Shown here piece by piece: positions 18,001 through 21,000 of a stretch of DNA of 35,633 bases. Position numbers: made by a program. Within the stretch, counting starts at the first letter, position 1; each line of letters starts with the position of its first letter. The stretch lies in NCBI GenBank assembly GCA_965649205.1, contig CBFGJV010000022.1, positions 1-35,633 of the forward strand, read 5' to 3'. The stretch is from a candidate division WOR-3 bacterium (lineage in GTDB: Bacteria > Hydrothermota > Tepidihabitantia > Tepidihabitantales > Tepidihabitantaceae).

Positions 18001-21000
18001 GCGGTAATACCGGGATATACCTGTACAGCAGTTCCAATTGCTGGATAGTAAACAATTTTGTTTCCGGTGCGCGGATGATGTGCGTCTACTTCAATACCGC
18101 GTCGGGCAACACCATCGCCAACAACACTTTCATTACCGATTCAACCGCTGCCGGCGCTGTGGGTATGTATCAGAATCAGAGCAGCAACACCTTTTACAAC
18201 AACATCGTGGTGTCATCTTCCTACTGCCTGTACACCAGTTCCCAGCCGGTCAATTCTGATTACAACTGCTGGTATCGTCATTCCGGGGACTCCCGCCTGT
18301 TTTACCTCAGCAATGTGGGGGCAATGGGACTTTTGAGCTGGCGCAGCCGGTCGGGAAACAGAATAGATATGAACAGTATGGAAGCAGACCCGCTGGTTGT
18401 GGACAGGATTTCTGACCTGCATCTGCAGGCCGAATCGCCCTGCATTGATGCGGGCAGCGCCATCAGCGGTATTGCTCGAGATATAGATGGACAGATGCGG
18501 CCCCACGGAGCCGCCTGCGACATTGGCGCAGACGAGTACTATCCCGTGGGACTGGCAGGCGAGGCGGGATGTCGGTTGTCAGACAGCAGATTGCGCATCG
18601 CGCCCAACCCGGCGCGGTACAGAGCAACTGTCTGGTTTTCGTCGGATTTCTCCGCTGGCGGATTTGCTCCGGCGGCTGTTGGTCTTTACGATGCCTGCGG
18701 TCGCTGCGTGCGTGTTTTTTCCGCCTGCCTTGCGGACGAGGCAGGGTATAAGGTTGACCTGGATTTGAGAGGACTGGCGGCTGGCACTTATTTTGTGCAG
18801 GCTACCGTCGGTCGTTGCCGGATCGGGGACAAACTGCTGGTGAGGTAGAATATGACAGTTTTCTGGCTGTTATGTCTGTTTACGGTAGTGCCGCGCTTTC
18901 AGGGACCTTTTCCGGTGCTCTGCGCCGGCACGCCCATTGATGTGGGCACCCACAGCATTCCCGATGTGGCGGACTGGGACGGTGACGGCAGAAAAGACCT
19001 GATAGTGGGACAGTTTGATTCCGGATTCGTCAGATGCTATCTGAACACCGGCTCAGACTCCAGCCCGGTATTCGAGAGTTTTTTCTTCATCACCGACATA
19101 TCGGGTACCCGTATCAAACTGCCGTTTGGTTGATGTATCGGTTCTGTTCCACAGGTTGTGGACTGGAATTCAGACGGCATAAGAGACCTTCTGTGTGGCG
19201 ACCGGGGCGGGTATTTGAATGTGTTTATCCAGACCGACTCCGGACTTGTGTCTTATCTGCGCCTGCGCAAGCAGAATGGGGATACGATTGATGTGGGCAC
19301 TAATTCCTGCCCCACCGTGATAGATTGGAACTCCGACGGCCGCAAGGATGTGGTGATTTCCCGCGAGAACGCCATTACGTTATTGTTTCTGAATATCGGC
19401 TCGGATACCTGGCCGGTGTTTCAGGATTCCATTATTGTGAGCGTGGGCGGCAGCTGGCTGGTTTTCAGCCGGGGACAGCCGCGCGCCTATGATTTGGATC
19501 AGGATGGCCGCCAAGACCTTATCTACGGCGAAATGTCCGGCTACATTCACTTCCTGCGCAATCTGGGACCGGACTCCTTTGCCACTCTGGCCAGACCAGA
19601 GACTCTGCGCACTGTGACAGGTAGCAGAATAATGCCGCCCGGCTCGCCAGCGCGGGAATCCAAGGTAGGCGTCTGCGACTGGAATAACGACGGCACGCCC
19701 GACCTTTTGGTGGGCGGCTATTCCGGTCTTATTGACCTTTATCTGGGTGTGCCGCAAGTGGGTCTGGCTGAAGACGCCGGATACAGGTTTTCCGAGGTAA
19801 GTTTCCGCATCCGGCCTAATCCGGCGCGGGACAAAGCCCAAGTCTGGTTTTCTCCTTTTGCCAGAGAAAACGGCTGTTGTCTGCGTCTGTATAACTCTGC
19901 AGGCCGCTGCGTGCGGTCGGTTTCGTTCAGCTCGGCATCCGCCGGGCCTGAAAACAGTTCAGTTCTGCTCGATTTGCGCGGTCTGCCCGCAGGCGTGTAT
20001 CTGGCATATCTAAAAAAGCCAGGCCGGAAGTCTGCGCAGAAGTTGGTGGTAGAAGAATAAATCCGCGCTTCCGCTTGAAGGAGTGCGCGGCTTTTGCTCT
20101 TGACCACAGAAGCGCAGAGGGCCATAATCACAATGTGAAAGCACCGGGCCGGCGCGTGGACTGGCGGCAGTGGCTGGTATTCGCAGGGGTAGCCCTGCTC
20201 AGTGTTCTGCTCTATCTGCCCACGCGGAAATACGATTTTGTCTGGGACGACGGGCCGCAGATAAGAGACAATGAACACCTGGCGCGGCTGAGTCCGGTCC
20301 GCGTGCTTTTTTCCGGGTATGTTCTTGACCCCAAGATAGCGCTGCAGACCGGTACTTTCACCTACTACCGGCCTTTGCCCATTCTCAGCTTTCAACTGGA
20401 AAAGAAGCTGTACGGCAACAACCCAGTCGGGTACCATTTCCACAACGTTCTTTTGCACACAGTAGCGGTGCTGCTGGTATGTGCGGTGCTTTTTACCCTT
20501 TTCCGGTCAATCTGGTGGGCGGGTGCCGGCGGACTTCTCTTTGCTCTGCATCCGGCTTTGCACAGCGTGGTGACATTTGTGTCCAACCGTACCTATCTTT
20601 TGGCCGGTGTATTCCTGCTGCTGGCACTCTTGGCGCTTTTGCGGGGACAGAAAAGAAGGCAGACAACTCGCAGAAAACCGTCCGGCTGGTGGCCGTTGCT
20701 CTATGGTTTGGCGTTCTTTCTGGCTCTTCTGTCCTTGGAGTCCTGTCTGCTTTTCGTGCTGGCGGCACTGGCTTGGCTGCTGCTCACGCAGAAGAGCTAT
20801 GTCAGGCCGCCGGTCTGGTTTCTGGCGTCTGGGCTACCGCCGCTTGCTTATCTGGTCCTGCGTCTTTTGGTGGCGCGGGTTCCTTTTGCCGAAACTGTGA
20901 TAGGTGCGGGACTTGCCCAACCTCTGACCATATTCAACAACTTCGGTCAGCAGACATTGTCCTTTCTGGTGCCGGTAGGGTTGAAACTGGTTCATACAGA

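Follow-up and report, generated by a model that had tools for sequence, protein, structure and literature searches.

The question raised by this locus is whether two neighbouring short gene calls are in fact one gene whose in-frame TGA is read as selenocysteine (Sec), and what kind of protein such a gene would encode. The window, i.e. the whole stretch of 35,633 nucleotides analysed from a candidate division WOR-3 bacterium, contains on the forward strand at 18852-20060 one open frame of 402 codons, which runs from ATG to TAA and has its sole internal TGA at 19131-19133. Translation table 11 cut this frame into pieces of 93 aa and 300 aa, reproducing the two gene calls, and when the frame was re-read no other stop was found, as had been stated in the initial annotation. 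The features of the locus are as follows.

18852..20060, forward strand: very likely a single gene of 402 aa with its TGA read as Sec (frame, Pfam, TGA conservation, AlphaFold and structure comparison)
18839..18846, forward strand: Shine-Dalgarno-like GGTGAGGT, 5 nt ahead of the ATG and overlapping the end of the upstream gene (sequence)
18852..18890, forward strand: probable signal peptide, 13 hydrophobic residues followed by P-R-F (by eye)
18891..19760, forward strand: predicted five-bladed beta-propeller (AlphaFold pLDDT 91.7; best VIA Z 18.8 to five-bladed propellers)
18972, 19161, 19323, 19491 and 19677, forward strand: starts of the D-x-[DN]-x-D-G loops (sequence)
19131..19133, forward strand: in-frame TGA, putative Sec94 (U94) (frame, conservation and reading of the site in relatives)
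19134..19136, forward strand: Cys95 (TGT), also kept in Cys-only homologues (alignment)
19140..19170, forward strand: bSECIS-type hairpin (folding, codon comparison and published consensus)
19470..19472, forward strand: Arg207, the blade-4 Arg, predicted at the funnel rim (Arg in 115/130 Sec forms and 26/26 Cys forms)
19662..19664, forward strand: Lys271, the blade-5 position (Arg in 110/130 Sec forms and 26/26 Cys forms)
19815..20051, forward strand: T9SS type A sorting domain-like Ig fold (Por_Secre_tail/TIGR04183, both barely above cut-off)

Five D-x-[DN]-x-D-G repeats are visible in the protein sequence, and together with the closed propeller of the model they place the protein among the FG-GAP/VCBS propellers. 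On the read-through protein, Pfam gave FG-GAP_3 with an E value of 1.1e-21 in three stretches, not in four as reported before, whereas Por_Secre_tail (PF18962) was recovered at residues 322-400 as described (27.6 bits against a cut-off of 27). The corresponding NCBIfam model TIGR04183 scored 24.9 (cut-off 23). The N-terminus is hydrophobic, as expected from the signal peptide claimed initially, but the stretch is short here; in relatives, likewise judged by eye, the signal peptides are typical and comprise 17-22 residues. To judge from the sequence, the propeller gene and the upstream gene probably form an operon. We consider it very likely that 18852-20060 is one gene for a Sec-containing propeller protein of this architecture.

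The search of 272 genomes of the phylum yielded 111 matches in 64 genomes. Exactly one TGA was present in each of the 93 matches at E<=1.7e-36 (58 genomes, the source genome counted), always in frame, never as TAA or TAG, and with coding sequence on both sides (position checked in 71), which extends the single TGA per match that had originally been noted for 18 of 18. The 18 weaker matches (E>=6e-23) contained no TGA, four of them being fragments that miss the site. In all 71 phylum sequences read, drawn from the 93, U-C occupied the same loop. Eight further Sec loci were found outside the phylum, in Kiritimatiellae, Victivallales, Verrucomicrobiota, Fermentibacteria, Planctomycetota and one unlabelled genome, and the predicted family of propeller selenoproteins is one that spans several phyla. 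Close database relatives bear the label candidate division WOR-3. As a control, 30 other FG-GAP loci were taken from eight genomes that use Sec, and none of the 30 had a TGA between the repeats. The comparison, in which the relatives are not independent and the carrier and machinery counts are tallies rather than tests, confirmed that the putative Sec codon is conserved far beyond chance.

In the source genome selA, selB, selD and tRNA-Sec were all found; the tRNA-Sec scored 73 bits against a cut-off of 47 and has the anticodon tca, and selD itself contains a TGA. Elsewhere in this genome TGA is a normal stop, since it closes 362 of the 879 long frames. Genome-wide recoding of TGA was rejected, TGA being the commonest stop and tRNA-Sec the sole tRNA with a UCA anticodon that was found. 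SelA was detected in 54 of the 58 phylum carriers, in two of them by a partial match only. As to the four carriers without SelA, G223 has tRNA-Sec and SelB, G145 has tRNA-Sec, and in G158 and G160 (87% and 76% complete) the TGA gene is present and SelA, SelB and tRNA-Sec were not found. Of the 137 phylum genomes that gave no SelA match at all, only three have the gene. Both SelA and tRNA-Sec were found in 7/7 carriers from other phyla and also in Aquisphaera insulae, a cultured strain that carries a Cys form of the protein.

The hairpin that had been described downstream of the UGA was found again. Its upper stem UCCACA/UGUGGA of 6 bp pairs 19148-19153 with 19157-19162, the apical loop GGU (19154-19156) lies 20 nt after the UGA, and the MFE is -11.4 kcal/mol. 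The bSECIS consensus given in the accessible part of PMC13188914 comprises a loop of 3-9 nt with G in the two leading positions, a stem of 4-16 bp, a distance of 16-37 nt from the UGA and an MFE <= -7.5, and the hairpin of this gene agrees with all of these. It had been objected that the hairpin is not significant. For the gene taken alone this is correct, the hairpin being borderline (p=0.08 versus synonymous recoding), but the doubt is resolved by conservation at synonymous codons and by compensatory changes in two sequence versions. With the synonymous-recoding null, 75 of 79 genes folded below the null mean, 36 of them at p<=0.05, and the mean z was -1.74. In subfamily A (44 genes) the stem reads UCCAC/GUGGA and the five core pairs are whole in 44/44; in subfamily B, whose 35 genes encode a different peptide, it reads [GA]UCGC/GCGA[CU] with the five core pairs present in 35/35, and the Ile codon ATC is coupled to the Asp codon GAT in 6/6. 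Behind U the Pro codon is CCA in 41/43 cases, whereas it is CCA in 13/83 where this motif recurs in other blades. Two-sided stem changes occurred also in L160, L166, L189, L200 (CCG with GCG) and L174. Among other-phylum and metagenome loci, 128 of which gave 87 rows at E<=1e-30 after exclusion of rows missing the site, a G-loop stem of at least 5 bp was seen in 53/59 of the Sec forms and in 2/28 of the forms lacking Sec, even though four AAGGC-loop hairpins with a visible stem were counted as failures. Similar loops (GUU, GUC or GGUC) follow the TGA of selD and of three other candidate Sec genes of the genome. Comparison with the relatives thus shows conservation of the predicted SECIS-type element. 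As a side observation, several genomes contain two to four paralogues drawn from both hairpin subfamilies, and neighbouring duplicate Sec-bearing copies occur at G205:C50:9165-15370, at G146:C38:1686-4027 and in L053.

The read-through proposed at the outset is borne out by the conserved TGA, the full Sec machinery, the co-occurrence with SelA and tRNA-Sec and the covarying hairpin, and we regard it as nearly certain that SelB acting on the hairpin would deliver Sec-tRNA, giving Sec94-Cys95. If the TGA were a true stop, the locus would represent two genes or a pseudogene. This would fit the databases, in which both halves are annotated and 49 of the 120 top hits begin just behind the TGA, and a GTG is available downstream at 19158. 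However, that GTG lies in the 3' arm of the hairpin and has a poor Shine-Dalgarno sequence, the second piece lacks a signal peptide, and no ATG occurs within 24 codons in 63/79 genes. Moreover, according to the model the cut would separate blade 1 from blade 2 of a propeller that is closed, uninterrupted homologues of equal architecture exist, and the codon is TGA in 93/93, never another stop, so that termination at this position has hardly any probability. Only marginally more credible, and still highly improbable, is that a suppressor tRNA or a recoding of the genome places Gly, Trp or Cys at the UGA. The Gly aligned in homologues without TGA would agree with such a reading, whereas the use of TGA as the commonest stop, the assignment of the only UCA-anticodon tRNA to tRNA-Sec, the hairpins that track the TGA and the carriers that track SelA all speak against it.

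The peptide around U94 reads L-P-F-G-U-C-I-G-S-V-P-Q-V-V-D-W-N-S-D-G. This motif had been called invariant, which did not hold on a wider sample: U-C was found in 71/71 phylum sequences read but in 122 of 130 Sec forms overall, a set that includes some near-duplicates, the rest being U-S (3), U-Q (2), U-G (2, namely C-U-G and U-G-S-C) and U-L (1). About half of the phylum copies read U-C-Q-G-x-x-[VI]-A-V-C-D-W, and G-C-U-G was read in one homologue, L046. Contrary to the earlier statement that no Cys-form homologue exists, Cys-only forms turned out to be common. They comprise 26 loci of the form x-G-C-x-[GA] in the other-phylum and metagenome set, eight of them with C-x-x-C, and 31 uninterrupted single-propeller proteins among the 120 top database hits, 29 of these with G-C and many with the same CTD architecture. 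Sec aligns without a gap with the Gly of the Cys-only forms, the conserved Cys standing one residue further on; the Sec column is Gly in 26/26 Cys-only loci and in 29/31 uninterrupted database homologues. The classical pairing of Sec with Cys is thus missing at this column, which counts against the Sec reading. The site always keeps a chalcogen, be it as lone Cys, C-x-x-C, U-C, C-U, U-x-x-C or lone U. None of the other Cys columns is conserved above 48/130, and six proteins have no other Cys in the propeller; the lack of a conserved partner Cys argues against a structural disulfide.

In three sequences (L170, L185 and L203) the TGA stands at the Cys column. That of L170, which is 75% identical to a Cys form and has a weak hairpin, may be a nonsense change. 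L181 has AGA (Arg) at the site where its sisters L185 and L203 have TGA, and a loss of Sec by a point change is possible there. A midpoint-rooted FastTree phylogeny nested two Sec forms among 22 Cys forms (clade support 0.998); with its weak deep nodes and without an outgroup, the tree does not fix the direction of the change between Sec and Cys.

To place the dyad in the fold, we refer to an AlphaFold2 model built on 70 sequences with U entered as C (pLDDT 91.7), which shows five blades followed by a flexible linker and a tail folded as a beta-sandwich. The top VIA matches were mostly propellers of glycoside hydrolases, e.g. GH43, the best with Z 18.8, rmsd 3.0, 234 aligned residues and 13% identity; Foldseek against the PDB returned generic propellers, and in phmmer against the PDB the sole match was CRTAC1 (E 0.078). 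Judged from the model, the glycoside-hydrolase matches indicate the fold only. Hydrolases of the GH43 type have a conserved catalytic Asp/Asp/Glu set at the starts of the inner strands, and no conserved acid is found here at those positions, equated by inference rather than by superposition; a place among the GH43-type hydrolases is not supported. The likeness to the five-bladed GH43/GH32/GH62 hydrolases is thus one of fold alone (Z 18.8), whereas the present protein has no Pfam match to them and a funnel that holds Tyr, Sec-Cys, Asn and Arg with no conserved carboxylates.

In the model U94-C95 is located in the loop ahead of the inner strand of blade 2, and in FG-GAP topology that loop and the Ca2+-type loops lie on opposite faces. 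The corresponding sites in the remaining blades are occupied by Tyr, by Asn-Ser (Arg-Ala in Cys forms), by Arg and again by Arg (Lys in this copy). The Sec-Cys dyad probably sits at the rim of the central funnel, close to conserved arginines, a geometry drawn from secondary structure and general propeller topology and not from distances. Arg or Tyr at that position is also seen in unrelated repeats of this type.

We give even chances to the reading that U94-C95 acts at the surface as a redox pair of selenol and thiol, set in an anion site lined by Arg. The Ca2+-type loops would brace one face of the propeller, and the U-C loop would lie at the rim of the central funnel on the other face, together with the Tyr, the Asn and two Arg. 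The arginines could hold an anionic substrate, such as a sulfur or selenium oxyanion, a persulfide, a disulfide or an acidic glycan. The selenolate would attack this substrate and Cys95 would resolve the adduct; the vicinal Se-S bond formed in this way could be re-reduced by a thioredoxin at the surface. The genome encodes a CTD-tagged TlpA with U-P-S-C. The redox reading is favoured because layouts with one and with two chalcogens share a single exposed site that lacks a conserved Cys as structural partner, and because an exported Sec-TlpA is encoded in the same genome. Against it, the Sec-TlpA was found at E<=1e-30 only in family f1 and three f39 genomes and in no other carrier families, and no conserved redox gene neighbours the 156 loci compared. 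The clusters of ORFs at these 156 loci were mostly antisense frames, none of the real neighbour families was seen in over 10 loci, and only members of the genus share the upstream beta-helix gene.

Two other functions of the selenoprotein were considered, each of them unlikely. The dyad could be a site for soft metals or metalloids (Hg, Cu, As, Zn) that serves surface capture or sensing. Adjacent chalcogens on an exposed loop of the model would suit such a site, and C-U motifs are listed in the metal-related selenoproteins SaoL, HgcA and MbdU in the accessible part of PMC13188914; however, many homologues have a single chalcogen (lone Cys, U-S), no conserved His/Cys cluster lies nearby, and no metal-resistance genes neighbour the compared loci. 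With a similarly low probability, the protein could be a lectin or adhesin whose Arg-rich face binds an acidic glycan, with Sec/Cys tying it to a target covalently or by a redox switch. Fusions of the domain to FN3, Laminin_G, Calx-beta and dockerin modules occur, and its profile weakly matches integrin propellers, CRTAC1 and two Streptomyces "secreted esterase" chains, 8w20/9oee, of which 9oee is the UmbA4-TUA complex; the UmbA4 propeller binds teichuronic acid, as stated in the available part of 10.1101/2025.04.24.650519. Yet these matches reflect generic repeat similarity (E 1e-8 or weaker), and a single asymmetric reactive site would better suit an enzyme than a multivalent lectin.

A location at the cell surface, assumed by the redox reading as well, is likely: the signal peptide would take the protein across the inner membrane, and a SprA/PorV T9SS-like translocon would bring it to the surface. 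It has the C-terminal sorting domain of type A T9SS cargo, and its genome encodes SprA (475 bits versus a cut-off of 200), at least seven PorV (seven over the cut-off) and dozens of CTD proteins; a PorU-like gene scored 382.6 against a cut-off of 420. The description of the protein as T9SS-sorted is therefore supported by the CTD, SprA and PorV, but not by the GldM motor, which was not found in this genome, the control genome being silent as well. The WOR-3 T9SS is possibly motor-less or divergent.

With the FG-GAP/VCBS propellers, such as integrin alpha, CRTAC1 and the UmbA4 lectin, the protein shares D-x-[DN]-x-D-G repeats in a beta-propeller, but it has five blades and a Sec/Cys site, whereas the known ones have six or seven blades. 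Mammalian thioredoxin reductase has a vicinal Cys-Sec dyad in the order G-C-U-G. Adjacent Sec and Cys flanked by Gly are common to it and the present protein, as they are to the C-U selenoproteins SaoL, SaoC and HgcA in Table 1 of PMC13188914 (as far as accessible); here, in contrast, the order is mostly U-C and the dyad is internal in an exported propeller of unrelated fold. Compared with bacterial SelB/bSECIS genes, the in-frame UGA, the 3-nt loop with G first 20 nt downstream, the 6-bp stem, the value of -11.4 and the full sel set are alike, whereas Sec here aligns with Gly beside a conserved Cys, an aligned Cys being usual there if not universal.

It had been stated that FG-GAP proteins are not a known selenoprotein family. 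In support of this, no FG-GAP, propeller, VCBS, T9SS or ASPIC family is among the 119 of Table 1 in the accessible part of the 2026 catalogue (PMC13188914), and in NCBIfam 20.0 only the T9SS tail was above cut-off, with no selenoprotein model for the protein. Such a family is not mentioned in the text and four supplements of PMC12013277, nor in the text and one supplement of PMC13326102, in which "WOR-3" is absent too and whose supplement may be incomplete; FG-GAP does not occur in the available part of 10.1101/2022.07.06.499078, and literature searches did not find a description of the family. The statement needs a restriction, however: Table S9 of PMC4807772 (2016), in the part available, contains four ASPIC-UnbV/FG-GAP selenoprotein candidates with Gly as the homologous residue. 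These are likewise FG-GAP repeat genes split by UGA, with a SECIS in 3/4. The present protein, with its five-blade propeller and T9SS-like tail, is set apart from them by description, since the table has no sequences; the ASPIC/UnbV domain had no match in this protein or in 24 homologues. The gene is well supported as a predicted selenoprotein gene of an uncatalogued family that uses the ordinary bacterial Sec system and is unusual in its scaffold, location and Gly/Sec alignment.

Screening for Cys/Sec pairs is the main SECIS-independent method according to the accessible part of PMC13188914 (2026), and the family may be uncatalogued because such screens would miss a Sec/Gly pair. The alignment of Sec with Gly exposes this blind spot in the standard screen, and truncation to one half probably affects hundreds of entries in the databases, as it did 49 of the 120 top hits. 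The family would be a large, multi-phylum one whose FG-GAP propeller scaffold and extracellular location are unlisted in those parts of the catalogues that could be compared, and its natural Sec-Cys, Cys-Sec, lone-Sec, lone-Cys and CxxC versions offer a comparative system for what selenium adds. A more speculative scenario, which we hold to be rather doubtful, is that Sec arose beside an existing catalytic Cys (Gly to Sec) instead of replacing it, and has since shifted between adjacent positions, the SECIS being re-formed in other codons; the protein would then belong to a set of T9SS-exported selenoproteins, among them the Sec-TlpA and two more uncatalogued families of this genome, that make up a redox relay of selenols on the cell surface of WOR-3 and related anaerobes. 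If so, there would be a class of selenoproteins invisible to Cys/Sec-pair screens.

The source genome contains three further exported Sec candidates with a CTD, one of them a TlpA:

G000:C4:64583-65569 (L217:284-1270), forward strand: exported 328-aa protein with an FlgD_ig-like tail and one TGA in W-Y-R-C-U-G-D-N-C, followed by a GGUC-loop hairpin
G000:C16:18882-19301 (L218), forward strand: TlpA/AhpC-TSA domain with T-U-P-S-C and a sorting tail
G000:C13 about 3432-1371, reverse strand: exported CTD protein of ~680 aa with one TGA in G-R-S-G-U-G-G-C and an 8-bp stem

The main domain of the 328-aa protein had no Pfam match, and from its sequence this protein is probably another uncatalogued selenoprotein. 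Among the family relatives of the TlpA most have the TGA and a few have none. Elsewhere in the window, an open frame of 1638 aa without a Pfam match runs off the contig at 30718-35631 on the forward strand, two tandem paralogous subtilases with T9SS-like tails lie at 5120-10540 on the reverse strand, and a reverse transcriptase-Cas1 fusion (RVT_1, GIIM and Cas_Cas1 in Pfam) is encoded at 464-2755 on the forward strand.
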